From Escherichia coli (lineage in GTDB: Bacteria > Pseudomonadota > Gammaproteobacteria > Enterobacterales > Enterobacteriaceae), in assembly GCA_005400705.1 (NCBI GenBank), contig GCA_005400705.1_4079.1: a stretch of 64,000 nt of DNA; one strand, given 5' to 3'. The notes under the pieces were generated by a model. That model worked only from the letters and a program-made list of their open reading frames with translations. It had not been told where the DNA came from and did no database searches. Below are positions 46,492-59,560 of this stretch, piece after piece. How positions within the stretch are numbered: position 1 is the first letter of the stretch; every line of letters starts with the position of its first letter. A program made the translations under genes and the position numbers.

Positions 46492-46554
46492 GTACTTGCA
46501 ATTAGTTTTCAGTACTGTATAATGGTTTACATCAAAGGGAGAAATGGTTCTCCC
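46491..46554 (+). promoter_or_regulatory. PeSL-like cassette
   Basis: agtacttgcaattagttttcagtactgtataat, hairpin gggaga-aatggt-tctccc. Confidence 0.6.
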
Positions 46555-46573
46555 TGGTAATGAGGAAAATAAA

Positions 46574-46795
46574 ATGGCTAATATCACTACTCTTTCCCAA
46601 CTGGAAGCACTGGTTAAATCTATGCGGGAACATGCCGACAAAATCGGCGTACAAGATCCAGCCGTTTGCTTCTGCGACGAATTGAATGATGATACCCTGG
46701 TAATAGCAGAAGTCCAGGACGTTTCTAACTATTCCTCGCGTTACACTGGCGGCGTAGCAAATAAAGGTGACTTCTGTTTATACCTTACAAAATAA
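46574..46795 (+). CDS. hypothetical protein
   Basis: 73 aa from ATG 46574, RBS gagga. Confidence 0.55.
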   Translation: MANITTLSQLEALVKSMREHADKIGVQDPAVCFCDELNDDTLVIAEVQDVSNYSSRYTGGVANKGDFCLYLTK

Positions 46796-46798
46796 CAA

Positions 46799-46836
46799 CG
46801 CGGGGAGATAATAACTCCCCGTTACTTTTTCAGTAC
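46799..46836 (+). terminator. intrinsic terminator
   Basis: cgcggggag-ataataa-ctccccg then ttacttttt. Confidence 0.6.
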
Positions 46837-46958
46837 TGAATCATTTAATAGACGGATCTCGGCACCCGGTGGGTTAGTGACTGTTTCGTCTTGATGTAGT
46901 AATTATGCCAGTACTGGATGCACTTGTCAACAATTATTTTTCAAATACTTTTTATTAA

Positions 46959-47017
46959 AATACTTGCAATTAGTTTTTAAACGCGTATAATGTTTTGCAT
47001 AGGGGGAGCGGTTCCCC
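46959..47017 (+). promoter_or_regulatory. PeSL-like cassette
   Basis: tacttgcaattagtttttaaacgcgtataat, hairpin gggga-gcggt-tcccc. Confidence 0.55.
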
Positions 47018-47038
47018 TGGTAACTAAGGAATAATAAA

Positions 47039-47275
47039 ATGCTTGAACAAATCAAATCAACGTCTTCGAATGTAACGGGAACGGTAGCACACTTTACTAG
47101 TGATGAATCGCGGGGCGTTCCCTATTGTGCTGTACATGTAAACACTGAGGGTAACTACTGGTTTACGGTTTACGGTTCATATTCATTTGGACGGCCAGGG
47201 CATCAAAAAATTCTGGATAAAGTACAGCCAACGGGTAAAAATATCACTGCTGAAATGTTTTATAAAAAATCATAA
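47039..47275 (+). CDS. hypothetical protein (paralog of 45884 product)
   Basis: 78 aa, RBS aagga. Confidence 0.6.
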   Translation: MLEQIKSTSSNVTGTVAHFTSDESRGVPYCAVHVNTEGNYWFTVYGSYSFGRPGHQKILDKVQPTGKNITAEMFYKKS

Positions 47276-47276
47276 A

Positions 47277-47339
47277 GTACTTGCAATTAGTTTTTAGTAC
47301 TGTATAATATTTTACATCGCAAGGGGGAGCGGTTCCCCC
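47277..47339 (+). promoter_or_regulatory. PeSL-like cassette
   Basis: aagtacttgcaattagtttttagtactgtataat, hairpin ggggga-gcggt-tccccc. Confidence 0.6.
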
Positions 47340-47359
47340 TGGTAACTAAGGATAATCAA

Positions 47360-47659
47360 ATGAAAATTGCAATCATCGCCCTGGCTTTATCTGTTTCCTC
47401 TTTCGCTGTTAATGCGTCATTAGATGTAAGTAGTGAAAAATTCATTCAGTGCACTGTTGCAATGACCGATGAAAGTACTGGCGAGATTGTTTTAAAGGAT
47501 TTAGAGATCCAGCCCGAAGCATTTAAAAACGGGCCGTTCCATGAAGAAGACGAAAAAGGTAGCACGACAATTTATTACGATGCAAGTACTAAACGCGGTT
47601 CGGTCACTGTTATGGATACTGAGAAAGTAACTCATACTGGCGTTATTAATTGCCGTTGA
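47360..47659 (+). CDS. secreted protein (signal peptide)
   Basis: 99 aa, signal peptide MKIAIIALALSVSSFAVNA. Confidence 0.55.
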   Translation: MKIAIIALALSVSSFAVNASLDVSSEKFIQCTVAMTDESTGEIVLKDLEIQPEAFKNGPFHEEDEKGSTTIYYDASTKRGSVTVMDTEKVTHTGVINCR

Positions 47660-47680
47660 TAGATACTACGGGGTAACATC

Positions 47681-47911
47681 ATGACTAAGCGAATTGTTTT
47701 ACTTAACGAAAGCAGTACTACACAACTACTTAACGCCGTGCATTATGATATTGAAACGAGCGTTAATCTTATCAGTACTGTAGTACTGTTGGACACTGGA
47801 AAGGTCGCCAATGATAAAGCGATTGCAGGTATACTAACGGATCTTGAGCCTGGTAGCAGTGCACCAATAACGTTAAATGGTAAAGTGTTTAATATTTTAC
47901 TCACTGATTAA
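47681..47911 (+). CDS. hypothetical protein
   Basis: 76 aa. Confidence 0.5.
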   Translation: MTKRIVLLNESSTTQLLNAVHYDIETSVNLISTVVLLDTGKVANDKAIAGILTDLEPGSSAPITLNGKVFNILLTD

Positions 47912-47917
47912 GTACAT

Positions 47918-47941
47918 AGCCCACCTGGTGGGCTTTTTTGT
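47918..47941 (+). terminator. intrinsic terminator
   Basis: agcccacc-t-ggtgggct then T6. Confidence 0.7.
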
Positions 47942-47992
47942 TTTTGTAGTATCGTAGTACTGAGATACTTTGAAAATAGTTTTAAAAAATAG

Positions 47993-48020
47993 TTGACATT
48001 ACCGCAGAAAAGCGTAGAAT
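47993..48020 (+). promoter_or_regulatory. sigma70-type promoter TTGACA-16-TAGAAT
   Basis: ttgaca 47993-47998, tagaat 48015-48020. Confidence 0.5.
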
Positions 48021-48143
48021 GTATTACATCAAGACGGGGAGCACTAAGTAGACCGCCAGTAAGTCGAACGAAAAACTGGACACGTCGAGAAAACTTTGAT
48101 ACACTAATAAACGTAAACTAAACTTTAATTGAGGATTTATAAA

Positions 48144-48626
48144 ATGGCTAATGTAAAATCATTCATCAAAGCACTGGTAGCAAATGAAACTAACGTCGCG
48201 GCAGAGATCCTGGCTGATCTGGATAACGATACCATGAAAGCGGTACGCAATAATTTTAACATCGCTTATAGTACTGCGAAAGAACTACAAGCAAATAAAG
48301 CGGCAGAAATTGAAGCGGCAAAGGCGGCCCGTGAAGCAGAACTACAAGCAACAATTGAAAGTATCCAGGCGGCAGTAGTTGGATTGGATCTGGAAGTAGT
48401 TACAGAGATGGCACAAAAAGCCCTGGCGGTTAAGTATGGGGAAGATAAGCCGGAATCTAAGCCTAAAAAATGGATTCAAAAACGTGTAGCGGTAGTACTG
48501 GACAACGGGGAAGAATATCTGATTCCGGTGCGTGGTAACTGCATTGCGGTAGTACTGGATGCGATTAACTCCAGTGGTATGACTCGCGAGGAATGGATCG
48601 AAGCTCATCGCAAAGTTGAAGCATAA
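48144..48626 (+). CDS. hypothetical protein
   Basis: 160 aa from ATG 48144 (RBS gagga); alternative start 48129. Confidence 0.55.
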   Translation: MANVKSFIKALVANETNVAAEILADLDNDTMKAVRNNFNIAYSTAKELQANKAAEIEAAKAAREAELQATIESIQAAVVGLDLEVVTEMAQKALAVKYGEDKPESKPKKWIQKRVAVVLDNGEEYLIPVRGNCIAVVLDAINSSGMTREEWIEAHRKVEA

Positions 48627-48647
48627 CAATTAAAGTACTGAATCACT

Positions 48648-48675
48648 AGCCCACCTTAAACGGTGGGCTTTTTTG
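48648..48675 (+). terminator. intrinsic terminator
   Basis: agcccacc-ttaaac-ggtgggct then T6. Confidence 0.7.
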
Positions 48676-48823
48676 TGTTTATCGTTTACCAGGCCACCAG
48701 CACCGCCTAGAAACGATTCTAACGCATTAAACTGATTATCTGATGCATTGCCCTAGCTGGTGGCGTTAAGGCTGTAAGAACGCGATTGAGAGCGTTTAAA
48801 GTATTTTGCAAAAAGTAATAAAA

Positions 48824-48888
48824 AGTACTTGCACGATTAAGAGATTAGCGTATAATGTTTTACATCGAGAGGGGGAAACGGTTCTCCT
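48824..48888 (+). promoter_or_regulatory. PeSL-like cassette
   Basis: aaagtacttgcacgattaagagattagcgtataat, hairpin ggggaa-acgg-ttctcc. Confidence 0.55.
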
Positions 48889-48911
48889 TCCAAATCAAAG
48901 GAATTAAAACA

Positions 48912-49139
48912 ATGGCTATCGTAATCACTCGCGTAACTGGTACTACTGGCAATTCTTCTACTGTTGCTGTAATTACTAATAAGAAAGGTGCGGAATTGCA
49001 TTTTGCAATGGATAAATGGGCCGTTAATGAGTTCGGTCAGTGGGCAAGTGTAGCATACATTGAAACCTATCAAGTGCCGTCGATTAGTTTAACTGATTTG
49101 GGCGTTGAGCGTATCCTTTGCCTGGATGAATTAAATTAA
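48912..49139 (+). CDS. hypothetical protein
   Basis: 75 aa from ATG 48912, RBS aaggaa. Confidence 0.55.
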   Translation: MAIVITRVTGTTGNSSTVAVITNKKGAELHFAMDKWAVNEFGQWASVAYIETYQVPSISLTDLGVERILCLDELN

Positions 49140-49140
49140 A

Positions 49141-49206
49141 AAAGTACTTGCAAAGTAAATCAGATAAAGTATAATACATTACATCAAGGGGAGAAATGGT
49201 TCTCCC
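49141..49206 (+). promoter_or_regulatory. PeSL-like cassette
   Basis: aaagtacttgcaaagtaaatcagataaagtataat, hairpin gggaga-aatggt-tctccc. Confidence 0.6.
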
Positions 49207-49225
49207 TGATAATGAGGAAACTAAT

Positions 49226-49369
49226 ATGAAAACTTGTCAATGTGGTAAAAAATCTATTACTGGTTTAAAGCGGGGCGTTGCACTTTGCCAGTACCATTAT
49301 AATTTACAAGTATGGGGTAAAGAATGGGCCGACCAGGTGGAAGCAGCAAAGAAAGCAAAAAGTAAGTAA
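49226..49369 (+). CDS. small Cys-containing protein
   Basis: 47 aa (below cutoff), RBS gagga; CQCG...C..H. Confidence 0.45.
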   Translation: MKTCQCGKKSITGLKRGVALCQYHYNLQVWGKEWADQVEAAKKAKSK

Positions 49370-49388
49370 AAATATTATCACAGTACTA

Positions 49389-49417
49389 TTGACATAGTTT
49401 GATAGTACTGGCATAAT
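49389..49417 (+). promoter_or_regulatory. promoter TTGACA-17-CATAAT (AGTACTGG class)
   Basis: ttgaca 49389-49394, gatagtactggcataat. Confidence 0.5.
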
Positions 49418-49450
49418 AGATTTTATCAAGACAACTAAGAGGAAATTAAA

Positions 49451-49795
49451 ATGGCTAATATCAACACTATCGCAAAACAAAATATCAACCTGTCTTCTGT
49501 TGAAGTTGTACATATTGCCGCTCGGCGTTGGTTCCAGGCTTCATATGGTAACACTTATTTCTCTTTAAGTGTAGACGTAGAAATTGATGGTAATTTTATT
49601 GAAGTAGTAAACGTGCCGTTCCAATATGGATACGGGGATCACTTTGACACTGTAGCAATGGAAGAATTTAGCAAGGTTATTAATATGGAAGATAAGGAGT
49701 TTACACGCGGATCGTACCTTTCACGTTTTTGCCGTGATAATAATATCACTGTTTACAGTTCGGTAACTGATGTTAAACGCAAAAAAGATCTTTAA
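49451..49795 (+). CDS. hypothetical protein (paralog of 55420 product)
   Basis: 114 aa; shared features incl. C-terminal DVKRKKD. Confidence 0.55.
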   Translation: MANINTIAKQNINLSSVEVVHIAARRWFQASYGNTYFSLSVDVEIDGNFIEVVNVPFQYGYGDHFDTVAMEEFSKVINMEDKEFTRGSYLSRFCRDNNITVYSSVTDVKRKKDL

Positions 49796-49875
49796 TTCGC
49801 TTTACTTTATGCAGATACTTTGATATAGTGTCTGCATAGGGGAAAGAAATTAAATTAACTTAAGAGGAACGTATA

Positions 49876-50145
49876 ATGAAAAATATCAGTACTTTAATCG
49901 ATGCAGGTACACATGTTCGGCGGTCAATGGTTGCAACCAGTACTACAAAACAAGTAGCGAGCGGTTATCTTGTATTTGTGCACGATGGTAAACTCCTGGA
50001 ACGTTCAATCAATTTTGATGTTAAAAACAATTGCCGTTTTATTATCTTTCGCCGTGAACAATATAAGATCGACATTCCAGCGAAGCCCATTAGCGGTGCG
50101 TACAACGTGCAATCATTGTTTGAGCGTCAACCATACACCTATTAA
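49876..50145 (+). CDS. hypothetical protein
   Basis: 89 aa, RBS agagga. Confidence 0.5.
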   Translation: MKNISTLIDAGTHVRRSMVATSTTKQVASGYLVFVHDGKLLERSINFDVKNNCRFIIFRREQYKIDIPAKPISGAYNVQSLFERQPYTY

Positions 50146-50196
50146 TCAAAACATCGTTAGCGGTTGATTTAGGCCGCTTATATTGAGGATTATACC

Positions 50197-50469
50197 ATGA
50201 ACGTTAATCAAGTACTGAATGAGATCGAAAGCATCATTAAACCGATGAAGCGTACTGATGCTATGTTAACACCGGAAGAATGCCGCCTATATGAGCGTTA
50301 TAGCGTCGAACAAGTCCAGGCAATGGCTATGGCTACCACAGCCGTTAAACCGCCTGAGAATGCGTTACAGGACGTTACAGGGGATTATATCATCAATCCA
50401 GTACTAGGGAAGATGGCTGCAATCACCGAAGATCAACAAGACTACTTAAGCCAGTACTTAAAAGGTTAA
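50197..50469 (+). CDS. hypothetical protein
   Basis: 90 aa, RBS gagga. Confidence 0.5.
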   Translation: MNVNQVLNEIESIIKPMKRTDAMLTPEECRLYERYSVEQVQAMAMATTAVKPPENALQDVTGDYIINPVLGKMAAITEDQQDYLSQYLKG

Positions 50470-50474
50470 TTAAT

Positions 50475-50684
50475 ATGCTTACTGTACAGGATAAGATCGA
50501 CATCTTAAAGGTTAATATGTATGTGATTGATGCCGTACCTGGTAAAGTATTTGCATACGATGATAGTACTGTAAGCGATTTCTACTATAGCCAGGACGTG
50601 GGGGATCTTTCTGTACAGTCGGTTATTGAAAACGTAGTTAATGCAGCGTATGAGCATTTACTTTCAAATAGTACTTGCAATTAG
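50475..50684 (+). CDS. hypothetical protein
   Basis: 69 aa. Confidence 0.45.
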   Translation: MLTVQDKIDILKVNMYVIDAVPGKVFAYDDSTVSDFYYSQDVGDLSVQSVIENVVNAAYEHLLSNSTCN

Positions 50685-50734
50685 TTTTTAAACGCGTATA
50701 ATGTTTTACATGAAGGGGAGAAATGATTCTCCCC
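50670..50734 (+). promoter_or_regulatory. PeSL-like cassette
   Basis: agtacttgcaattagtttttaaacgcgtataat, hairpin ggggagaa-atga-ttctcccc. Confidence 0.6.
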
Positions 50735-50753
50735 ACTAATTAAGGAATATGAA

Positions 50754-50900
50754 ATGAAAGCATCAAAAAAGAGTAATACCAAGAAAGCATGTTCACCTTT
50801 CGCTGGGGTATTCCCTTTACGTTTCGTTGATGAAGTGGTTTCCTACCCGCCGGGCCTTACTCCTGAGATGGTAGAAAGTTTGCGTAAATCTAAAAAATAG
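50754..50900 (+). CDS. small basic protein
   Basis: 48 aa (below cutoff), RBS aagga. Confidence 0.4.
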   Translation: MKASKKSNTKKACSPFAGVFPLRFVDEVVSYPPGLTPEMVESLRKSKK

Positions 50901-50963
50901 TACTTGCAATTAGTTTTCAGTACTGTATAATGTTTTACATGAAGGGGAGAAATGATTCTCCCC
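50899..50963 (+). promoter_or_regulatory. PeSL-like cassette
   Basis: agtacttgcaattagttttcagtactgtataat, hairpin ggggagaa-atga-ttctcccc. Confidence 0.6.
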
Positions 50964-50981
50964 AATAACAGGAGAAACAAA

Positions 50982-51134
50982 ATGAAACAATACAACGCTC
51001 GGTTTGATGTTACTATCGGTAACGGCAAAGGTCAATTCTCTTTCAGTACTCGCAAAAGTTATACAGAAAACTTCCTGCGTAATTGTGCACTGACCGCCGC
51101 TCAAATTAAACATTACTTTCAGGCTAAAAAATGA
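50982..51134 (+). CDS. small protein
   Basis: 50 aa from ATG 50982, RBS aggaga. Confidence 0.45.
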   Translation: MKQYNARFDVTIGNGKGQFSFSTRKSYTENFLRNCALTAAQIKHYFQAKK

Positions 51135-51220
51135 AATCATTAGCTTACTATAGTTCGGCCCTGGTCGGTACATTGATCGCGGCATTGTTAGTAACCTATC
51201 TATTCTTTATGGTGATTTAA
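51131..51220 (+). CDS. small hydrophobic peptide
   Basis: 29 aa, ATGA overlap, single TM helix. Confidence 0.25.
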   Translation: MKSLAYYSSALVGTLIAALLVTYLFFMVI

Positions 51221-51364
51221 ATGAATCCAACAGGTTTAAATTATAAAAGTTGTTCGGCGTTTACGAAAGCAAATAAAGCGAATGCACGTAAAGCGAAAGT
51301 ACAGGAATACATCAAGCAAGGCATGACGCGAAAGGCGGCGATTCTAAAAGCTAAAAATAAATGA
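51221..51364 (+). CDS. small basic protein
   Basis: 47 aa, start abuts upstream stop. Confidence 0.35.
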   Translation: MNPTGLNYKSCSAFTKANKANARKAKVQEYIKQGMTRKAAILKAKNK

Positions 51365-51371
51365 AAAAAGT

Positions 51372-51402
51372 GGTTGACTCCGGTCAGCCATTTTGCTATT
51401 AT
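51372..51402 (+). terminator. fused terminator-promoter (GGTTGAC-TCCG-GTCAGCC)
   Basis: Hairpin 51372-51389, TTTT, tattat 51397-51402. Confidence 0.6.
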
Positions 51403-51488
51403 ATATTCATTGAGAGATAGCTCACTAGCCCACAGGGTGCATAAGTGTATCTATTATATAAGTATTGAGTACTGAAAACTATTTTTAA

Positions 51489-51554
51489 AAAGTACTTGCA
51501 AACTATCTCAATTGGCGTATAATGTTTTACATCGCAAGGGGAAACGGTTTCCCC
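51489..51554 (+). promoter_or_regulatory. PeSL-like cassette
   Basis: aaagtacttgcaaactatctcaattggcgtataat, palindromic stem ggggaaac-g-gtttcccc. Confidence 0.6.
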
Positions 51555-51574
51555 TGGTAATAAGGAAACGAATC

Positions 51575-51916
51575 ATGACTATCTCAATTGCTCAATCTAA
51601 CTTTGAAAACGAAATCATCGCCCAGGCACTGCGTTTAAATGATGGTCGGGCCGAAATTAATTACGGTTTCAATTCAGGCGGTTGCGAAAAATATCAGTAC
51701 TTTGTAACGGCTGATGGCGGTGTCCTGGGGATCAATACAGTTATTGTAAACATTCAGAAAATTAATTTCAATGATCCAGAAGATAGCCAGTTTTACATCA
51801 CGGGCGTGAACGTGAACTATGAGGATGATTATCTAACTGATGATCACACTGGCGAGAAGTTAGAAAGTGCATACGGTGAAGATGATTATCAGTCCGGTCC
51901 AGAAGATTTTGAATAA
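51575..51916 (+). CDS. hypothetical acidic protein
   Basis: 113 aa from ATG 51575, RBS aagga. Confidence 0.55.
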   Translation: MTISIAQSNFENEIIAQALRLNDGRAEINYGFNSGGCEKYQYFVTADGGVLGINTVIVNIQKINFNDPEDSQFYITGVNVNYEDDYLTDDHTGEKLESAYGEDDYQSGPEDFE

Positions 51917-51930
51917 TATTAAAAAATAGT

Positions 51931-51990
51931 TTGACAATAGATTATAGTACTGTATAATAAGTTACATCAAGGGGAGAAATGATTCTCCCC
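51931..51990 (+). promoter_or_regulatory. PeSL-like cassette (TTGACA-16-TATAAT)
   Basis: ttgaca 51931-51936, tataat 51953-51958, hairpin ggggagaaatgattctcccc 51971-51990. Confidence 0.6.
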
Positions 51991-52010
51991 ACTAACAAAG
52001 AGAAAACAAA

Positions 52011-52223
52011 ATGGCTAATATCTGCACTGTACTGAAAAATGCAAAACAAGTTTTATTTTCTGATCATGAAAATTTCAACAAGGATATTACGGGCGTTCGG
52101 AATATCAAAGATGTAAAAAGTGTTATGGGTATCTATTGCAATATGAAACGTGTTGGTACGTTCGGCGACAAAGTACTATACCAGGCAGGGGATTATAACT
52201 TTACATTAACCATTATCAATTAA
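52011..52223 (+). CDS. hypothetical protein
   Basis: 70 aa. Confidence 0.55.
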   Translation: MANICTVLKNAKQVLFSDHENFNKDITGVRNIKDVKSVMGIYCNMKRVGTFGDKVLYQAGDYNFTLTIIN

Positions 52224-52241
52224 AATATATTACCAGTACTA

Positions 52242-52270
52242 TTAACAATGATTGATAGTACTGGCATAAT
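52242..52270 (+). promoter_or_regulatory. promoter TTAACA-17-CATAAT (AGTACTGG class)
   Basis: gatagtactggcataat. Confidence 0.45.
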
Positions 52271-52314
52271 AACTTTTATCAACAGTAGTTAACTTAACAA
52301 AAGAGAGAAACAAA

Positions 52315-52458
52315 ATGATCGCACTAGATTCATTCATCGACGCAGTACTGGCAAAAACTGGCGAGGATCTGACCGCAGAACAATACGCGATGATCGAACA
52401 ATGTCAGCAAAACGGTAAATCGGTGAAAGATACTGTTAAGATTATCCGCAAGATGTAA
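52315..52458 (+). CDS. small protein
   Basis: 47 aa (below cutoff), RBS agagag. Confidence 0.4.
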   Translation: MIALDSFIDAVLAKTGEDLTAEQYAMIEQCQQNGKSVKDTVKIIRKM

Positions 52459-52563
52459 GATTATAGCCCACTGGTTAACGCTGGTGGGCTATAATTCATT
52501 ACCCTATACAATGCCAGTACTCAACCGTTTATCTCGTTAGAATGCGTTACAGGACGTTTACCA

Positions 52564-52761
52564 ATGATTAGCATGAAATCAGTACAAAAACAAATAGAAA
52601 CATTATCAAAAATTAAACGTAAACAGTACTCGTTAGAATATACAATCAATGGTAACTATCATCTAATGAAAGAGAATAATTTTATCGTCATTGATGAATC
52701 ATTGCAAGTTATTAGTATAGTACTGAAAGCATTAATCAATGACAGAAAAAAATTAAAATAA
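52564..52761 (+). CDS. hypothetical protein
   Basis: 65 aa. Confidence 0.45.
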   Translation: MISMKSVQKQIETLSKIKRKQYSLEYTINGNYHLMKENNFIVIDESLQVISIVLKALINDRKKLK

Positions 52762-52765
52762 TCTA

Positions 52766-52794
52766 TTGACAATATCCTCCAGTACTGGCATAAT
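52766..52794 (+). promoter_or_regulatory. promoter TTGACA-17-CATAAT (AGTACTGG class)
   Basis: ttgaca 52766-52771, agtactggcataat. Confidence 0.5.
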
Positions 52795-52856
52795 ACTTAC
52801 ATCAAGACGAGAACGTCACCAACCCATAGGGTGCACAAATGTAACTATATAATATC

Positions 52857-52929
52857 GATCAATAAATGATCAAAAAAGTACTGGATCAATTTAGCATAAG
52901 GCGTATAATTCTGATCAATTCTTGATCAA
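52857..52929. repeat. cluster of five (T)GATCAA repeats (GATC sites)
   Basis: gatcaa at 52857, 52868, 52884, 52913, 52924, flanking a tataat at 52903-52908. Confidence 0.5.
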
Positions 52930-53090
52930 AGGCAATATACGCAGTTGAATTTATATAGACAGTACAAAGGCGTTACTATCCGTGGTAATGCTGGTGGATA
53001 TGTAGTATCATATGGTTTGAATAAGATAAACACTAGTAGTATTATTGTAGCATTACAGTACTATAGTATTTTTATAATGAGGTTAAAATA

Positions 53091-53348
53091 ATGGCAGTAG
53101 GATACGCGAAAGACGGGGCCGAACAAGACGAGATTCATGCAGTGATTCAGGCCGCCGTTAACCACGCTAGAAAGCAAATTAACGCACAAAGAGAATCACT
53201 GGTACATTGCCTCGACTGCGGCGATAAAATTCCTGAGAATCGACGCCAGGCCGTTATAGGGTGCATGTATTGTATTACTTGCCAGGAGGATCATGATAGT
53301 ACTTTTAAAAGAGATCCGCGTAATTGTTGGCATAGATCTATGAGATAA
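53091..53348 (+). CDS. TraR/DksA-family C4 zinc-finger protein
   Basis: 85 aa; CLDCGDKIPENRRQAVIGCMYCITCQ gives CxxC-x17-CxxC as in TraR/DksA. Confidence 0.65.
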   Translation: MAVGYAKDGAEQDEIHAVIQAAVNHARKQINAQRESLVHCLDCGDKIPENRRQAVIGCMYCITCQEDHDSTFKRDPRNCWHRSMR

Positions 53349-53354
53349 AAAGTA

Positions 53355-53383
53355 ATTGACAGTACTGAAAGATAGTGTATAAT
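53355..53383 (+). promoter_or_regulatory. sigma70-type promoter TTGACA-17-TATAAT
   Basis: ttgaca 53355-53360, tataat 53378-53383. Confidence 0.55.
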
Positions 53384-53412
53384 GTTTTATATCTTAACTG
53401 AGGATAGAAATC

Positions 53413-53769
53413 ATGGGAATACAACATATCACGCGTACTACTGACAATGGCGAGATCACTGGTTATCAAGTACAGGGCAAAGTAGCACAATTGCAGTACT
53501 GGTTTGTTAAACGTGGAATCATTGCACCGGATCTTGATTATGACCGTGTAGCGTTTATTGATTCTCTTTATGTTGATCCTGATAGTCGGGGCAATGGTGA
53601 AGGTAACGAATTAATGAATGCCTTTATCGATGCCGCCGATGATTCAGATTGTATCATCTTAGAATGCGATACGGGAGAAGATAACGCCTTTAATCTTAAA
53701 GAATGGTACGAAGGTTTCGGATTCGAGGTATTGATAGATAGTGAATATCCTATCATGATTTTATCATAG
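53413..53769 (+). CDS. hypothetical protein, possibly GNAT-like acetyltransferase
   Basis: 118 aa; IDSLYVDPDSRGNGEGNELMNAFIDAA loosely resembles GNAT motif A. Confidence 0.5.
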   Translation: MGIQHITRTTDNGEITGYQVQGKVAQLQYWFVKRGIIAPDLDYDRVAFIDSLYVDPDSRGNGEGNELMNAFIDAADDSDCIILECDTGEDNAFNLKEWYEGFGFEVLIDSEYPIMILS

Positions 53770-53830
53770 TACTTGCATTTAGTTTTCAGTACTGTTATAG
53801 TACTTGCATCAAGGGGAAACATCTTCCCCT
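53768..53830 (+). promoter_or_regulatory. PeSL-like cassette (degenerate -10)
   Basis: agtacttgcatttagttttcagtactgttatag, hairpin aggggaa-acatc-ttcccct. Confidence 0.45.
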
Positions 53831-53847
53831 ACTAAGAGGAAATAAAA

Positions 53848-54036
53848 ATGGAAAACTTATCAAGTATTTTAGTACAAGATGATTTCGGTAATCCTGGAAG
53901 TGCTATCATTGTTCGGGGTAATAAAGCAACGTTTGTTATTGCTGGTGGACCCGTACAGCGTAGCATTAAAAATAATGCTGTTACCATTAATAATGTACGC
54001 TATCGCTTAGATAAAGAATTGATTCATAAACTGTAA
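53848..54036 (+). CDS. hypothetical protein
   Basis: 62 aa, RBS agagga. Confidence 0.5.
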   Translation: MENLSSILVQDDFGNPGSAIIVRGNKATFVIAGGPVQRSIKNNAVTINNVRYRLDKELIHKL

Positions 54037-54044
54037 AAAAGTAC

Positions 54045-54104
54045 TGGACAATAGATTATAGTACTGTATAATAAGTTACATGAAGGGGAGAAATGATTCT
54101 CCCC
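54045..54104 (+). promoter_or_regulatory. PeSL-like cassette
   Basis: tggaca-16-tataat (54067-54072), hairpin ggggagaaatgattctcccc. Confidence 0.55.
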
Positions 54105-54122
54105 AGTACTGAGGAAAGAAAA

Positions 54123-54335
54123 ATGCAAGGTCAACTAATCGTTCGTAAATGGTCTGATACTAACGCTAAACCGTGGGATGTACAATACATCGGCCCCAAT
54201 GGTGAATCCAGATATCAACCAGGTGTAACGCATAGTACTGAGCAATTCGCCGCCGCTCATCGTGAACGTCTGTTACAATCAATGCAGCAAGGTTCCGGTG
54301 AAAAATTCATTCAGGATCATTGGCTGAAAGATTAA
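54123..54335 (+). CDS. hypothetical protein
   Basis: 70 aa from ATG 54123, RBS gagga. Confidence 0.55.
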   Translation: MQGQLIVRKWSDTNAKPWDVQYIGPNGESRYQPGVTHSTEQFAAAHRERLLQSMQQGSGEKFIQDHWLKD

Positions 54336-54336
54336 A

Positions 54337-54400
54337 AAGTACTTGCACAGTACTGAATAAAGTGTATAATGTTTTATATCGAGAGGGGAATAGTTCCCCT
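54337..54400 (+). promoter_or_regulatory. PeSL-like cassette
   Basis: aaagtacttgcacagtactgaataaagtgtataat, hairpin gaggggaa-tag-ttcccctc. Confidence 0.6.
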
Positions 54401-54421
54401 CCTAACAAAAAGGAAAGTATA

Positions 54422-54595
54422 ATGATCCAAGTAGAATTATCAGTACTGAAAGATCTATTTTATCGGTTAGGTACTAATGGCGAGTATCCTAAAAGTGATA
54501 CCGCAAAACTTTTTGTATCACTCGACTTATGGCAACGCGAACAATTAGTAATGTCGTGGCGTAAAGGTAAAGCAGATCGCGAGGTGAAAGCATGA
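54422..54595 (+). CDS. small protein
   Basis: 57 aa from ATG 54422, RBS aaggaaag. Confidence 0.45.
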   Translation: MIQVELSVLKDLFYRLGTNGEYPKSDTAKLFVSLDLWQREQLVMSWRKGKADREVKA

Positions 54596-54741
54596 AAGAA
54601 TTCTTATTTGAAGTAGTGTTTCAAGGTGTCGGTAATAACCAACTGATTCGATCAAGTGGTTATAATGTTAACCAGGCATGGAATAACATTAAACAAATGT
54701 ACCCTAACGCTATCACCTATCGCAACCCGAAAGAAGTTTAA
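54592..54741 (+). CDS. small protein
   Basis: 49 aa, ATGA overlap. Confidence 0.35.
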   Translation: MKEFLFEVVFQGVGNNQLIRSSGYNVNQAWNNIKQMYPNAITYRNPKEV

Positions 54742-54755
54742 AAATAATTGAAAAA

Positions 54756-54789
54756 GGGATTGACTCCGGTCAGTCCCTTTGCTATTATA
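54756..54789 (+). terminator. fused terminator-promoter (GGGATTGAC-TCCG-GTCAGTCCC)
   Basis: Hairpin 54756-54777, TTT, tattat 54784-54789. Confidence 0.6.
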
Positions 54790-54873
54790 TACGCATAGAA
54801 ACAAATCAGCCCACCGGGTGCATAAATGTATCTATTGTTTGCTGGTGGCTAGTACTGAAAACTATTTTTAAAA

Positions 54874-54906
54874 AGTACTTGCATTGTACTTAGAATCAAG
54901 TATAAT
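54874..54906 (+). promoter_or_regulatory. PeSL-type promoter driving the structured element
   Basis: aaagtacttgcattgtacttagaatcaagtataat. Confidence 0.55.
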
Positions 54907-54990
54907 GTTTTACATCAGGACGGGGAACGAAATAAGTAACTTCCCGTTAAGTAGCCCAGGAGTAAGGCACACGAAAAACTCCCCTGATAA
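54907..54990 (+). ncRNA. candidate structured small RNA, copy B
   Basis: Sequence identical to 45066-45150. Confidence 0.35.
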
Positions 54991-54996
54991 AATAGT

Positions 54997-55024
54997 TTGA
55001 CAATAGAAAGTAAACGAGTATAAT
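54997..55024 (+). promoter_or_regulatory. sigma70-type promoter TTGACA-16-TATAAT
   Basis: ttgaca 54997-55002, tataat 55019-55024. Confidence 0.55.
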
Positions 55025-55057
55025 ACTTACATCAACCACTGATAAGGAAACATTAAA

Positions 55058-55333
55058 ATGCGGATTCTACTGACAGCTAACGAAATCGAACAAGTACTGA
55101 CTACTAACCTGGAACAATGGAAACGTGATGCAGATATCCAGGCGGTTCAATGGCTTAACGATAAGTTAACGCCGGATGACTTAAGCAAGATTGTAGATCC
55201 TCAATTCTACGAAGATATCCACGACACCGCGTTAAGCGTCGAGGATGTACTTGATAAGCACTACATTGATACTGATTTACAGGTTTACGGTCGTAAAAAC
55301 TTTATCACTATCCACGACATTTACAATAATTAA
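55058..55333 (+). CDS. hypothetical acidic protein
   Basis: 91 aa, RBS aaggaaa. Confidence 0.55.
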   Translation: MRILLTANEIEQVLTTNLEQWKRDADIQAVQWLNDKLTPDDLSKIVDPQFYEDIHDTALSVEDVLDKHYIDTDLQVYGRKNFITIHDIYNN

Positions 55334-55336
55334 GTA

Positions 55337-55398
55337 TTGACAAAGTATCTTAGTACTGTATAATAGTTTACATCAAGTGAGGGGAAACGGTTCCCCTC
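55337..55398 (+). promoter_or_regulatory. PeSL-like cassette
   Basis: ttgaca-16-tataat (55359-55364), hairpin gaggggaaacggttcccctc. Confidence 0.6.
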
Positions 55399-55419
55399 CT
55401 AACAAAGAGAGAAATAAAA

Positions 55420-55743
55420 ATGGCTATGATCCTTACCCAGAAAGTAGAACTGAAAATTGTAACCTCCTTTGACATTAAAGTTAATCGCTGGACTGATCGG
55501 AACGGCAATACTTACCACTCTTGCTACGTGTCTGCATTGATTGGTGATCGTTGGGAAGACCTGGGACACGAAACTTTTACATACGGTTACGGTACGCAAG
55601 GCGAATACACGGGCTTGGAGATCATTAAAGAAACCGTTATAGGTTTCAACCCGAAAGAAAAAGTTATTCACCGCATCGAAAAAGAGATTAACAAAGAAAT
55701 AACAGTTCGCTACTACGATGTAAAACGTAAGAAAGACATGTAA
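55420..55743 (+). CDS. hypothetical protein (paralog of 49451 product)
   Basis: 107 aa, RBS agagag. Confidence 0.55.
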   Translation: MAMILTQKVELKIVTSFDIKVNRWTDRNGNTYHSCYVSALIGDRWEDLGHETFTYGYGTQGEYTGLEIIKETVIGFNPKEKVIHRIEKEINKEITVRYYDVKRKKDM

Positions 55744-55758
55744 TAGAATCCATTTAAA

Positions 55759-55794
55759 GTACTATTTGACATTACACAGATAGTACTTTATAAT
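55759..55794 (+). promoter_or_regulatory. promoter with palindrome AGTACTAT...ATAGTACT
   Basis: ttgaca 55766-55771 inside the palindrome, tataat 55789-55794. Confidence 0.5.
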
Positions 55795-55838
55795 AGACTC
55801 TAGCTTGTAGTACTAACTTAACTAATAGGATGTATACC

Positions 55839-56234
55839 ATGATTACTAAATTCTACGCTACCCGTGAAGCTGCCCGTATTGTTGCACGCGAGGAAGGAGC
55901 AGCATTTAAAGACATGGGCAAAGATGCACCGAAAGGCCAACGCTGGGCCGTACAGTTCAAAGAGATCTCTGATATTGTGAATTCACCGGAGCCAGTACTG
56001 ACAGCAGCAGAACAGAAGAAAGCTGATGAACTGTCAGCAGTTCTTAACGCTCAAGATGACTTTATCGCGGGTTCTGATATTAAAGTTTCCGTAAATTCGA
56101 ATGCATGGACTCACGCGGATCATCTGGCTAACTTGAAGCGTCCAAGTGTACTGATTCGCAACCAACGAGAGATCCGCCACGACCGCAAGGGAAACAGTGT
56201 TACTGTATTCAGTAAACGCCGCCAGGTTATCTAA
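55839..56234 (+). CDS. hypothetical protein (paralog of 44207 product)
   Basis: 131 aa from ATG 55839, RBS agga. Confidence 0.55.
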   Translation: MITKFYATREAARIVAREEGAAFKDMGKDAPKGQRWAVQFKEISDIVNSPEPVLTAAEQKKADELSAVLNAQDDFIAGSDIKVSVNSNAWTHADHLANLKRPSVLIRNQREIRHDRKGNSVTVFSKRRQVI

Positions 56235-56255
56235 TAACTTGCAGTACTAACAACA

Positions 56256-56290
56256 CGGCGGGTTCAGTTCCCGCCTTTTTTTTATAGGAT
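56256..56290 (+). terminator. intrinsic terminator
   Basis: ggcggg-ttcagtt-cccgcc then T9. Confidence 0.7.
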
Positions 56291-56298
56291 AAACTAAA

Positions 56299-56553
56299 AT
56301 GATGAAGGTACAACTATCTAAAGATAATATCTTGCGGGTACACTATAAAGCACCACAGAGAATCATCACAAAGGCCGTACAGCTTGCTAATGAGTTTATT
56401 AATGGTAGTCTATTACCCAGGAAGTTAAGCAACGGGAAACTACGTGTTATCGATGTAGACACTAACAATAGAATAGTAATTGAGAGTACTGGAAAAATTA
56501 ATCTATATGAACACCAACAATACAATAAAAAAATAAAACTAATATCACGTTGA
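56299..56553 (+). CDS. hypothetical protein
   Basis: 84 aa. Confidence 0.5.
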   Translation: MMKVQLSKDNILRVHYKAPQRIITKAVQLANEFINGSLLPRKLSNGKLRVIDVDTNNRIVIESTGKINLYEHQQYNKKIKLISR

Positions 56554-56578
56554 CAGTACTCAATTGTTTTAGTATTAT
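56550..56578 (+). promoter_or_regulatory. promoter TTGACA-17-TATTAT
   Basis: Near-identical to the 56826 promoter and leader. Confidence 0.5.
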
Positions 56579-56606
56579 GTACACATACCAACACGGGAGA
56601 AACAAA

Positions 56607-56825
56607 ATGAAATTATCTAAAATCGAAAAGAAAACTATTGATGAAGCAGTTAAGCACGGTTATACCTTTCGTAATGATTCACATTTTACCAATTTTCAAC
56701 AAGGGTATCGTACTATTAAAAAACTAATTGACAAAGGTTTATTAGTTGAAGTCAATAACGGCAATGGCATTGAGTATCAACCAACACAGGACGCATTTTA
56801 TTTTAAGAAATATAATATTATCTAA
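56607..56825 (+). CDS. hypothetical protein
   Basis: 72 aa from ATG 56607, RBS gggaga. Confidence 0.5.
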   Translation: MKLSKIEKKTIDEAVKHGYTFRNDSHFTNFQQGYRTIKKLIDKGLLVEVNNGNGIEYQPTQDAFYFKKYNII

Positions 56826-56854
56826 TTGACAGTACTCAAATGTTTTAGTACTAT
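56826..56854 (+). promoter_or_regulatory. promoter TTGACA-17-TACTAT
   Basis: Duplicate of the 56550 cassette. Confidence 0.5.
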
Positions 56855-56883
56855 ATGTACATACCAACACGGGGAAAAACAAA

Positions 56884-57126
56884 ATGATTACTTTAGAAAA
56901 ACGTATCAAAGAAACTACATCGCTGGTGGAACTGTTAACAGTACTGAAATGTAAAACAACACCATTCAGCACGCCGGACTTTATTAATATGGTTGATGTT
57001 AATGGTCGCTATCGCATCACGGTCGAACAAGGAGCGGCGAAAGTATTCAGTACTAAAAACACCAAGGAAGTGATCCACGCCGTTAATGTTAAAAAAGTAG
57101 TTGCCATTGATAGTAAAGTACTGTAA
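56884..57126 (+). CDS. hypothetical protein
   Basis: 80 aa. Confidence 0.5.
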   Translation: MITLEKRIKETTSLVELLTVLKCKTTPFSTPDFINMVDVNGRYRITVEQGAAKVFSTKNTKEVIHAVNVKKVVAIDSKVL

Positions 57127-57157
57127 TATAGTTTCATTAACTCAAGGAGAACATGCA

Positions 57158-57742
57158 ATGCGTAATTATACTAAATTCATCCGTACACTGTCAGAAATGG
57201 AAACCAACAAAGAGATCCTTTCAGCTTGTCGGTTAGCTGGCCTGGAGATCATCGGTGCTGGTTCTTCCCGTATAGTATTCGCTTTAAATGATCGGTTAGT
57301 GATTAAGGTCGCGAATTGTGATGCGGGTGTAGAACAAAATGAAACTGAATGTAAGGTATGGAATTTTTTAGACTATGACCGCCCTCAGTTGAAACAGTAC
57401 TTTGCAAAGGTGCATATGCATTTATGCGATCCTGATAATATGTTTATCGTTATGGATCGGTTGAGTACTGCAAGCAAAGGCAGTGTGAAGCACGTTAACG
57501 CGTGCAATGAATTAAAGTACAATATTAAACGTAATGCCATTGAACGCCAGCACCGCTTTGCTGATGCACTACAACACGTTGATGATACCTTATCAACACT
57601 AACTATAAGAGATATCAGAAAACAGAATATCGGCCAGGATCGCAACGGCTTGATTAAAGTACTTGATTACGGTTTAACCCGCAATATCTGGAATCAGTAC
57701 TATAAAAAGCGTGATGTAAAAGCCGTAACTATAACACGATAA
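57158..57742 (+). CDS. protein kinase-like protein
   Basis: 194 aa from ATG 57158 (RBS aaggaga); Gly-rich IGAGSSRIVF, Lys in VIKVA, RDIRKQNIG (HRD-like), VLDYGL (DFG-like). Confidence 0.5.
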   Translation: MRNYTKFIRTLSEMETNKEILSACRLAGLEIIGAGSSRIVFALNDRLVIKVANCDAGVEQNETECKVWNFLDYDRPQLKQYFAKVHMHLCDPDNMFIVMDRLSTASKGSVKHVNACNELKYNIKRNAIERQHRFADALQHVDDTLSTLTIRDIRKQNIGQDRNGLIKVLDYGLTRNIWNQYYKKRDVKAVTITR

Positions 57743-57756
57743 AAAAGATTAAAAAA

Positions 57757-57790
57757 GGGATTGACTCCGGTCAGTCCCTTTGCTATTATA
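57757..57790 (+). terminator. fused terminator-promoter (GGGATTGAC-TCCG-GTCAGTCCC)
   Basis: Hairpin 57757-57778, TTT, tattat 57785-57790. Confidence 0.6.
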
Positions 57791-57871
57791 TATGCATGAA
57801 AACAATCTAACCCACCGGGTGCATAAATGTATCTATTATATAAGTATTCAGTACTGAAAACTATTTTTAAA

Positions 57872-57937
57872 AAGTACTTGCATACTATCTCAATTCGCGT
57901 ATAATGTTTTATATCGAGAGGGGGAAATGGTTCTCCC
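57872..57937 (+). promoter_or_regulatory. PeSL-like cassette
   Basis: aaagtacttgcatactatctcaattcgcgtataat, hairpin ggggaa-atgg-ttctcc. Confidence 0.6.
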
Positions 57938-57959
57938 TGGTACATTAAGGAATAAAATC

Positions 57960-58367
57960 ATGACTACTACCAATCAAGCTCGGAACATCACCAACGATAA
58001 AAATCATGCTGCAATGGTCGCTGGATACATTGAAGCTATGCAATTCAGTACTGTATACAATGAGAACGGCGATTACCTGGAAGATTATGAATTATCAGAG
58101 CAAGCCCATCAAGCGGCAGTGATTGCATGTTCACGTTTCCTTGCTGTACATGGTGAAGATATGGAAACAGTACAAAAACACCATAATCCTGATTATACTT
58201 ATAATCATGCAGGTCATGATCTCTTTCTTACTCGCGAAGGTCACGGCACTGGCTTTTGGGATCGTGATATCGGTCACTATGACGATGTATTCACTAAGTA
58301 CTGCGAAGAAATCAACGTTTGCGATCCCTATGTAGGCGATGATAATCTAATCTATATGGGCGAATAA
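57960..58367 (+). CDS. hypothetical His-rich protein
   Basis: 135 aa from ATG 57960, RBS aaggaa. Confidence 0.55.
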   Translation: MTTTNQARNITNDKNHAAMVAGYIEAMQFSTVYNENGDYLEDYELSEQAHQAAVIACSRFLAVHGEDMETVQKHHNPDYTYNHAGHDLFLTREGHGTGFWDRDIGHYDDVFTKYCEEINVCDPYVGDDNLIYMGE

Positions 58368-58373
58368 AAGTAT

Positions 58374-58432
58374 TTGACAAAGTATATCAGTACTGTATAA
58401 TAGTTTACATCAAGGGGAGAATAGTTCTCCCC
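58374..58432 (+). promoter_or_regulatory. PeSL-like cassette
   Basis: ttgaca-16-tataat (58396-58401), hairpin ggggagaa-tag-ttctcccc. Confidence 0.6.
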
Positions 58433-58456
58433 ACACCAATAAAAGGAAACAAAATT

Positions 58457-58729
58457 ATGTCCAGCTACTCCGCTACTATGATCATTAAAGATATGAACGG
58501 TAATCCTACTTCTGCTGGTGGATCATTTGGAAATATTAACTTAGATGGGCGGTTATCCATGCAATCAGCCATTGATGCAGCGAAAGAAGTTTTTAAGAAT
58601 GAATGTACTGTAAGTAAGCTGGATTATATGGGATTCGCTATCGAGAAAACTAATCGTTTTGTGAACTACAAAAATCCACTGATGATCGATACTAACCTGA
58701 AAGCAAACGAAGTGGAATACTTATTATGA
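58457..58729 (+). CDS. hypothetical protein
   Basis: 90 aa, RBS aaaggaaa. Confidence 0.55.
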   Translation: MSSYSATMIIKDMNGNPTSAGGSFGNINLDGRLSMQSAIDAAKEVFKNECTVSKLDYMGFAIEKTNRFVNYKNPLMIDTNLKANEVEYLL

Positions 58730-58917
58730 CAGTTGAAGAAGTTAAAAAAGTACTGGCAGTACTACGCTATCATAATCATTGTAAGGTGAAGAATGATCCT
58801 GATTATGTTGATTCATCCCTGGAGGAAGACACCTTAAACGCGATAAGCCATATGCAAACATTAGCAAAGCGTATGACCGAAAAGAATAGGCCGGACTATA
58901 TCGGAAATAAAATTTAA
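58726..58917 (+). CDS. hypothetical protein
   Basis: 63 aa, ATGA overlap. Confidence 0.45.
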   Translation: MTVEEVKKVLAVLRYHNHCKVKNDPDYVDSSLEEDTLNAISHMQTLAKRMTEKNRPDYIGNKI

Positions 58918-58986
58918 AAAGTACTTGCATTGTAGTTAGATTAACGTATAATGTTTTATATCGAGAGGGGGAAATGGTTTCCCCTC
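58918..58986 (+). promoter_or_regulatory. PeSL-like cassette
   Basis: aaagtacttgcattgtagttagattaacgtataat, hairpin gagggggaaa-tgg-tttcccctc. Confidence 0.6.
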
Positions 58987-59004
58987 AAGTCCAGGAGATA
59001 CACC

Positions 59005-59268
59005 ATGAACGCTATTGAAATCACTATCAATGCACACGTATACGACAACGTAGTACTGCAAACTACTATGACCGCTAACGATACCAGTACTTTGCGGAAT
59101 ACTGTTATTAGTGCTGTATGTGCCGCTATCGGTGATGTCGCCCTGGAAAATGCAAAACACGTAAACGATGGTTTCACTATGTGCAAACGTGATAACGCAA
59201 AACATATCATCGTAGAAGGTTACGGCGGTGTAGAATATAATGTTTATATGAAAAAAGTACTTGCATAG
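59005..59268 (+). CDS. hypothetical protein
   Basis: 87 aa from ATG 59005, RBS aggaga. Confidence 0.55.
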   Translation: MNAIEITINAHVYDNVVLQTTMTANDTSTLRNTVISAVCAAIGDVALENAKHVNDGFTMCKRDNAKHIIVEGYGGVEYNVYMKKVLA

Positions 59269-59318
59269 TACTGAATAAAGCGTATAATGTTTTGCATAGG
59301 GGGAGATATCCTCCCCCA
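59265..59318 (+). promoter_or_regulatory. PeSL-like cassette
   Basis: aaagtacttgcatagtactgaataaagcgtataat, hairpin gggggag-atatc-ctccccc. Confidence 0.6.
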
Positions 59319-59335
59319 CTAAAAGGAGTATTAAA

Positions 59336-59560
59336 ATGGCTAACTTTGATGAACTGATGCGGGAAGTAGCTAACCTGGCAGAAGAGAAGAAATCATTCGA
59401 TTCTATCTATAACACCGCTCACCGTGATTCAGTACTGGCATGTAACCAGGATCAAAAAGATGAACTAATCGCCACATATCATGAAGCATGGAAGTACTAC
59501 CGACAATGGGAGAAAGAAGAAAGCGAGTCTACCATCGAAGGTATCAATAATCTAATCTAA
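59336..59560 (+). CDS. hypothetical protein
   Basis: 74 aa, RBS aaggag. Confidence 0.55.
   Translation: MANFDELMREVANLAEEKKSFDSIYNTAHRDSVLACNQDQKDELIATYHEAWKYYRQWEKEESESTIEGINNLI

Follow-up and report, generated by a model that had tools for sequence, protein, structure and literature searches.

Palindromes placed over the -35, the -10 or the +1 of a promoter, with a stronger and a weaker site, are the usual form of phage repressor operators such as OR and OL of lambda. In another kind of promoter (IS10 pIN, IS50, dnaA P2) a GATC is part of the -35 or the -10 and activity depends on methylation; E. coli hosts have Dam, and clusters of GATC mark oriC and P1 oriR. Joint control by Dam and a regulator was described for gtr of phage P22, where four GATCs in two pairs (-110/-97 and -46/-33, with one in the promoter) lie within OxyR sites and their methylation abolishes binding of the regulator (PMC2909390). 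SeqA prefers pairs of GATC on the same face of the helix about 10 or 20 bp apart (PMC2912659), while in P1 pac the methylation of seven TGATCA/G hexamers controls cleavage (PMC10028697). How Rak2-like jumbo phages regulate their genes has hardly been mapped. Among the papers searched, those on the Asteriusvirus relatives fEgEco12, Sharanji and phAPEC6 make no mention of promoters or GATC sites, the CBB paper predicts promoters with GATC sites absent from its account, and the literature on the strings TGATCAA and TTGATCAA consisted of unrelated papers only.

The stretch of DNA analysed here (64,000 nt, referred to as the window) belongs to a jumbo coliphage of the genus Asteriusvirus, 121Q/PBECO4 group. 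The segment 52400-53500 matched 42 phage records, all from the 121Q/PBECO4 jumbo-phage group (genus Asteriusvirus where classified), with Escherichia phage vB_EcoM_JNE01 as the closest (98.9%), and in vB_Ec-M-J the homologous stretch is located approximately 12.1 kb inside an annotated direct terminal repeat of 21,525 bp. Restriction mapping bore out terminal repeats of about 21 kb in fEgEco12 (PMC13070987), and repeats of that size were predicted for Sharanji (PMC11895373). From about 44 to 61 kb the window is densely occupied by small + strand ORFs, each with its own copy of a repeated sigma-70-type promoter in front. This early promoter (AAAAAGTACTTGCA-N17-GTATAATGTTTTACAT, -10 end GTATAAT) has at least 20 copies in the terminal-repeat region. 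Scans of the window for tRNAs and against Rfam gave no matches. Outside this region, on the minus strand, positions 27679-37332 hold a tandem array of eight paralogous ORFs (369–418 aa), RCC1-like and named 'regulator of chromosome condensation' in the 121Q annotation.

The first-pass annotation had pointed to five GATCAA repeats around a TATAAT, and this arrangement is present: five GATCs start at 52857, 52868, 52884, 52913, and 52924, that is within 72 bp, all reading GATCAA on one strand (+ strand contexts cGATCAAt, tGATCAAa, gGATCAAt, tGATCAAt, and tGATCAAa, in order) and separated by 11, 16, 29, and 11 bp. The TATAAT at 52904-52909 falls between sites 3 and 4, and a second one (52848-52853) lies just 5' of site 1. 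Relative to a start inferred as 7 nt past the -10, the sites are at -60, -49, -33, -4, and +8. The window contains 148 GATCs, followed by AA in 15% of the cases. Five or more GATCs per 72 bp were reached in 0.35% of 2000 dinucleotide-preserving shuffles of the window, and under uniform placement the value was 0.37%, or 2.1% using the higher local GATC density; for same-strand GATCAA the shuffles had a maximum of 3 per 72 bp (in 0.7% of them), compared to the 5 observed. In the complete 121Q genome (348,532 bp, joined from seven pieces for these counts) GATC is the second most avoided 4-base palindrome, with 620 occurrences vs. 1182 expected (O/E 0.52), and at least 4 GATCs per 100 bp are found at this locus only. 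The cluster had been noted with the proviso that a local frequency equal to the genome average would speak against it; the genome-wide density check points the other way, as this is the sole dense GATC spot in a GATC-depleted genome and is rare in shuffled sequences. The GATCAA cluster is real and highly non-random.

The base composition of these phages showed further biases. The genome-wide depletion of GATC, approximately two-fold, spares the terminal-repeat early region (4.5 GATC/kb in window 44000-61500 vs. 1.5/kb elsewhere in the window), and the 140–150 kb bin of 121Q has 49 GATCs where 50 are expected. GCGC is wholly absent, both from the 64-kb window (about 60 expected) and from the 348.5 kb of 121Q (153 expected), while CCGG has an O/E of 0.56 and GTAC of 1.42. 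Such a very strong avoidance of GCGC points to a restriction enzyme or phage nuclease targeting this motif.

GATC sites 1 and 2, as well as 4 and 5, pair up in two 17-bp dyads with GATC starts 11 bp apart, following the consensus TGATCAA-N3-TTGATCA, which was derived from these same sites. O1 (CGATCAATAAATGATCA, 52856-52872, GATCs at about -60 and -49) is an imperfect palindrome matching 12/14 positions, and O2 (TGATCAATTCTTGATCA, 52912-52928) is a perfect one (14/14) that spans the inferred start (-4 to +12). As in an operator, the dyad is longer than the methylation motif and recurs with the same half-site. GATC site 3 lies in an orphan half-site (TGGATCAA, 52882-52889) at the -35 position, which in one group of relatives (group B, see below) is the right half of a perfect palindrome. 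O2 is the sole site scoring 14/14, both in the window and across 121Q (about 0 expected). The 121Q genome holds 77 perfect 7-N3-7 palindromes when any sequence is allowed, and O2 alone of these has GATC in its arms. Counting the sites of three lineages, T at -1 and AA after the GATC are each found in 11/13. The distances between O1 and O2 in these lineages (56, 16, and 43 bp) lack a constant helical phase, thus cooperative looping between them is not supported. Two further, weak matches to the dyad were found in 121Q, both intergenic: AGATCAAGGATAGATCA at 189213-189229 (12/14, about 5 expected per genome), over the ribosome-binding site and start codon of gp409, and CGATCAAAAAATGATCT at 215907-215923 (11/14, about 55 expected per genome), following a terminator and preceding gp467. 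A regulon of GATC dyads in 121Q is not claimed, since both matches are within chance expectation. The second of them shares a 16-nt string with O1 of group B.

The cluster overlaps a promoter (52871-52909, + strand) that comparison of paralogous modules places as a diverged copy of the AAAAAGTACTTGCA-N17-GTATAAT early promoter (repeat family D8, 9 copies, 63–73% identity), the similarity to the family extending over 52869-52909. It is composed of an A-tract and AGTACT (52871-52882), TGGATC (52882-52887) at the -35, a 16-nt spacer and TATAAT (52904-52909), with GATC site 3 in the place of the family's -35 TTGCA; judging from the promoter sequence, transcription would start at about 52916-52918. 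On the minus strand, the TTGATC of GATC site 2 could be read as the -35 of a weak promoter-like match (9/12). A second promoter-like site lies upstream on the + strand (52766-52794; TTGACA, 17 nt, CATAAT, TG before the -10), scoring 11/12 in a consensus scan; it belongs to the TTGACA..AGTACTGGCATAAT repeat family (D6, D17) and is invariant in 12 relatives. Between the two, at 52823-52845 on the + strand and directly followed by the TATAAT at 52848-52853, is a conserved element, CCCAyNGGGTGCAyAArTGTAwC (CCCATAGGGTGCACAAATGTAAC, family D20), with six copies in the window vs. 0.6 expected and retained in jumbo phages of at least 10 host genera. GATC is missing within 120 bp of all five paralogous modules in the window, and in these another palindrome, TTCAGTACTGAA, stands where O1 would be; this suggests that the GATC sites are a replacement specific to this copy.

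The conserved element is part of a noncoding module of about 95 nt (approximately 44872-44936, 51360-51465, 52823-52853, 54745-54840, 57745-57840, and 60190-60285) made up, in order, of a terminator-like hairpin with a promoter -35 in its stem (AAAAAGGGATTGACTCCGGTCAGTCCCTTTGCTATTAT), the element itself and a -10-like TATTATATAA. Across 86 records of jumbo phages infecting at least 10 host genera the module is > 80% identical (3–11 copies per genome); it is far better conserved than the adjoining genes and has no match in Rfam, and it might serve as the recognition site of a phage activator or sigma factor, as in a middle-type promoter, or be some other kind of cis element. Furthermore, AGTACT palindromes are found on nearly all early promoters of window 44000-61000 (e.g., 53356-53383, 54334-54399, 57869-57934). 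The form at the -35 is AAAAAGTACTTGCA, that at the -10 CAGTACTGTATAAT and that near -50 TTCAGTACTGAA; the density of AGTACT is two- to three-fold that of the remainder of the window. These palindromes may represent a second, general class of operators.

The promoter had been assigned to the TraR/DksA-like gene downstream. This gene does belong to the same unit, behind the family promoter at 52869-52909, but the first gene after the promoter is an ORF of 48 codons. The latter (52945-53091, + strand, TTG start) matched phrog_38664 (E=3.7e-31) and its stop overlaps the next start (TAATG), so the two genes are predicted to be translationally coupled. The TraR/DksA-like C4 zinc-finger gene (53091-53348, + strand, 85 aa) matched PF01258 above the curated cut-off (E=3.7e-9) and NF008243 below it (78.6 bits), and is annotated as DksA-like in relatives. 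An AAAGG on the + strand (52928-52932), invariant in the alignment of groups A and B, lies 12 nt before the TTG/GTG start and is tentatively proposed as a Shine-Dalgarno sequence with long spacing. Frame and length of the small ORF are kept between groups A and B and its changes are conservative despite DNA identity of only about 60%, which marks it as a real gene. Homologues are present in Erwinia phage Hallingskeid, Pectobacterium phage CBB (unannotated, also within the terminal repeat), Cronobacter phage GAP32 and Serratia phage BF. The protein had no Pfam match at E-values up to 10, a profile of its family gave only chance-level matches among PDB sequences (E above 0.7), and a single-sequence AlphaFold model consisted of one long helix (pLDDT 69.5) and was uninformative. 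A search of a large protein database with the 48 aa returned one near-identical match, and in IMG/VR both the joint pattern and the small protein were matched by 121Q alone. In the UNVERIFIED record TH47 the small gene has a premature stop codon, which may reflect a pseudogene or a sequencing error.

Promoter and small gene together form a cassette of 330 bp (52762-53090) between an ORF of 65 aa and the TraR/DksA-like gene. Junction alignment with the empty site of phAPEC6 showed 10-bp direct repeats (TTAAAATAAT, + strand) at 52752-52761, holding the stop codon of the upstream 65-aa ORF, and at 53082-53091; phAPEC6 has a single copy of TTAAAATAAT and no cassette, its upstream ORF being joined to the DksA-like gene via TAATG. 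The repeats at the cassette ends fit a deletion or an insertion by microhomology. About nine records lack the cassette, including phAPEC6, UE-S1, ph0011, G17, A4, and Sharanji (group C). When the 64 small ORFs of the terminal-repeat region (window 40600-63500) were scanned in bulk against Pfam, one ParE-like toxin domain (PF24732, E=3e-10) was found besides matches to DUF7249, DUF7217, and DUF1033, and none had a recognisable DNA-binding domain, helix-turn-helix and ribbon-helix-helix included. A cognate DNA-binding protein for the palindromes was thus not found among these neighbouring ORFs, and the small protein is without characterised relatives.

The promoter segment was compared among relatives. 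In group A (≥ 95% identity, seven distinct sequences aligned) all five GATCs are kept and O2 varies in its central N3 alone. Group B (PBECO4, BF17, JP4, the Salmonella SD phages and others) has approximately 78% identity at this segment vs. approximately 90% in the flanking genes; O1 is kept as TGATCAAAAAATGATCT, a perfect palindrome (TGATCAATACTTGATCA) lies over the -35 with TTGATC as the hexamer, and GATC is absent 3' of the -10. The two perfect copies of O2 in groups A and B differ at one central N3 base and may share their origin, by duplication or gene conversion, rather than having arisen independently. In Hallingskeid the conserved element is followed by an O1-like TTGATCAAGAAATGATCAAA (TGATCAAGAAATGATCA), a promoter TTGACT-17-AATAAT and TGATCAATAATTGATCt, which spans the -10. 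The dyads scored 14/14 and 12/14 in PBECO4 and 13/14 each in Hallingskeid. The distance from O1 to AAATGTA is 13 nt in group A, group B and Hallingskeid, and O1 is identical at 17/20 positions between Asteriusvirus and Hallingskeid while the adjacent small protein is only about 35–40% identical. O2 is placed over the +1 in group A, the -35 in group B and the -10 in Hallingskeid (13/14), always overlapping the core promoter, although the promoters were in all three lineages predicted from consensus hexamers. In a recombinant of A and B (1300-1660 of a piece of the metagenome contig OERM01000014.1), A-type up to GATC site 3 and B-type downstream, three GATCs are left with O1 and the orphan half-site only; as the perfect palindrome is absent there, O2 does not seem indispensable. 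The small-gene homologues of CBB, GAP32, and Serratia BF stand behind promoters without GATC palindromes. Taken from these alignments, the GATC decoration appears specific to the small-gene promoter in two lineages, retained across genera and not universal.

The dyad symmetry, the conserved flanks, the pairing of one strong with one weak site and the overlap with the core promoter are the signature of an operator. We consider it about an even bet (probability approximately 0.5) that the GATCAA cluster consists of operator-like, protein-binding sites which give this one early promoter a separate control through a putative dimeric binder. A dimeric DNA-binding protein encoded by the phage or the host would bind each palindrome; occupancy of O2 would block RNA polymerase at the start site, or at the -35 (PBECO4 lineage) or -10 (Hallingskeid), and O1 would act as a second, weaker site. 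As GATC is at the core of each half-site, N6-adenine methylation by the host Dam or by the PF05869 enzyme of the phage would change binding, and the promoter could then behave in one way on the fully methylated DNA that enters the cell and in another on freshly replicated copies. Binding to the putative operator is probably sensitive to methylation, given the GATC core in every half-site and a phage-encoded Dam-family enzyme. That enzyme, gp417 of 121Q and a candidate GATC methyltransferase, matched PF05869 (Dam, E=7e-32) and scored 91.5 bits against TIGR01712, just below the NCBIfam equivalog cut-off of 97. VT2Dam presumably belongs to the same PF05869. The target of M.EcoVT2Dam is GATC (PMC6602927), and Dam-family methyltransferases were reported in Sharanji and phAPEC6 (PMC11895373, PMC7247149).

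The first-pass annotation had proposed a methylation- or SeqA-sensitive promoter, and this is a live hypothesis because of the GATC pairs spaced by 11 bp, the enterobacterial host and the PF05869 Dam-family methyltransferase in the phage group. Taken by itself it is the main rival to operators with a binder of their own: no dedicated factor would be needed if SeqA bound hemimethylated GATC pairs after replication, or if methylation altered the binding of RNA polymerase at the -35 and the start, and either parental or replicated DNA, but not both, would carry an active promoter. The 11-bp pairs recur in every lineage with the above-background density and the geometry preferred by SeqA (PMC2912659), they make up the only dense cluster in a genome that otherwise avoids GATC, the group to which the phage enzyme is assigned includes the GATC-targeting M.EcoVT2Dam, and the Pfam scan of 64 ORFs detected no phage DNA-binding protein nearby. 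SeqA and Dam, however, read GATC only, leaving the conserved T before it, the AA after it and two perfect 7+7 palindromes unexplained, and the Asteriusvirus enzyme, a candidate GATC methyltransferase, stays just short of the equivalog cut-off (91.5 vs. 97 bits), so we regard control by Dam and SeqA alone as possible but on the whole doubtful. Unlikely, in our judgement, is a more elaborate epigenetic timer, in which the Dam-family enzyme of the phage would fully methylate the GATCs of virion DNA, hemimethylated copies would be bound after replication by SeqA or a methylation-reading dimer, and the promoter shared by a small effector and a TraR/DksA-like modulator of RNA polymerase would be switched between parental and progeny genomes, the avoidance of GATC and the lone dense cluster being part of the design.

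The sites could also have no regulatory function and be by-products of local duplication or gene conversion in a fast-evolving, dispensable cassette, with TTGATC merely resembling a -35 TTGACA. Relatives without the cassette are viable, groups A and B differ in layout and a recombinant with three GATCs exists, TTGATC is the -35 in group B and more than 20 paralogous promoters in the region could act as donors for conversion; yet GATC is selected against elsewhere (O/E 0.52) and concentrated here, O1 is conserved between genera while the adjoining coding sequence diverged, two lineages retain perfect palindromes that vary in the spacer only, and GATC is found in none of the five paralogous modules, which leaves this explanation quite unlikely. 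In an RNA-level reading, the palindromes would form hairpins when transcription from the upstream promoter reads through, and these would influence how stable the small-gene message is, how it is processed or how it is translated. Such an element would agree with the 7-bp hairpin of O2 (-5.6 kcal/mol, z = -2.0) and with whole leaders whose folding is somewhat more stable than that of shuffled sequences (z = -1.5 to -2.6). We consider it very improbable, given that the hairpins are weak, AU-rich and not matched in Rfam, that a transcript with the inferred start at about 52917 is missing the left arm, and that the position of O2 relative to the coding start differs among the three lineages. The small replication or segregation site that had been offered as an alternative in the first reading is unlikely, as close relatives of the same genome type (phAPEC6, UE-S1, ph0011, G17, A4, Sharanji) are viable without any of the 330-bp segment, making an essential origin, partition or packaging site very unlikely. 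Clustering of GATC as at oriC or P1 oriR, and TGATCA hexamers as in the array of P1 pac, would agree with a cis site for replication, segregation or packaging, but no DnaA boxes, iterons or AT-rich unwinding element were seen adjoining the locus, conservation as an essential site is contradicted by group C, a promoter of the early family underlies the cluster, and the position about 12 kb inside the 21-kb terminal repeat is away from the genome end; together with a hexamer arrangement different from that of P1, this renders such a site very improbable.

Overall, the finding is modest and of specialist interest, palindromic operators and GATC-bearing regulatory sites both being known kinds. If the sites are methylation-sensitive, they would link the Dam-family enzyme of a lytic phage to the timing of a TraR/DksA-type regulator of RNA polymerase, and if a dedicated repressor binds them, the palindrome could serve as bait for a new small DNA-binding protein. 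The locus offers a handle of approximately 170 bp, with a defined operator-like sequence, naturally occurring versions that have 5, 4, 3, or 0 sites, and relatives without the cassette.

Several known binders were compared by eye and rejected. The OxyR half-site ATAGnTnnnAnCTAT, as quoted in PMC2909390, is not matched by the 17-bp palindrome. The IHF site (WATCAAnnnnTTR) was matched at 7/9 only, with both mismatches at conserved positions, the half-sites of FNR (TTGAT-N4-ATCAA) have a different order and spacing, and the crossover sites of Hin/Gin were likewise discarded. For DnaA boxes, site 3 alone resembles oriC I3 (TGGATCAA), and group B has TTGATCAA there.

In comparison with the switches that combine Dam with a regulator (P22 gtr, E. 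coli agn43, Salmonella opvAB, and Mu mom with OxyR and Dam), the locus shares paired GATCs in a short regulatory region, with five sites from -60 to +8 where at least two would be expected, and resembles P22 gtr in that its phage promoter has GATCs in two pairs and a further one at -33. The GATCs of a pair are, however, 11 bp apart, against 13 bp in gtr, on comparison with consensus sequences they did not appear to lie inside sites of the methylation-sensitive regulators OxyR, Lrp, Fur, or HdfR, and heritable phase variation is not an obvious purpose in a lytic phage. A density far above background and pairs about one helical turn apart recall the sequestration by SeqA at oriC and the dnaA promoter, which differ from this locus in that SeqA needs GATC alone, whereas the flanks are here conserved into a 17-bp palindrome, and in that the present cluster is small (five sites) and lies on the promoter of an accessory cassette, not at an origin. 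With P1 pac (HEX4 + HEX3) the locus has in common a TGATCA core repeated within a short coliphage stretch (PMC10028697), but it consists of two dyads instead of 4+3 hexamers flanking a cleavage site, is intergenic and on a promoter instead of inside the terminase gene, is not at the start of packaging and is absent from close relatives. Like IS10 pIN, IS50, and dnaA P2, it has a GATC at the -35 in both Asteriusvirus versions (TGGATC, TTGATC) and, in group A, at the start site, while those promoters carry one or two GATCs and no palindromic flanks. The operators of the lambda OR/OL type match in the 17-bp dyad with a free central spacer, the combination of a perfect and an imperfect site and the overlap with the core promoter in three lineages, and differ in that here the core of the half-site is itself a methylation target.
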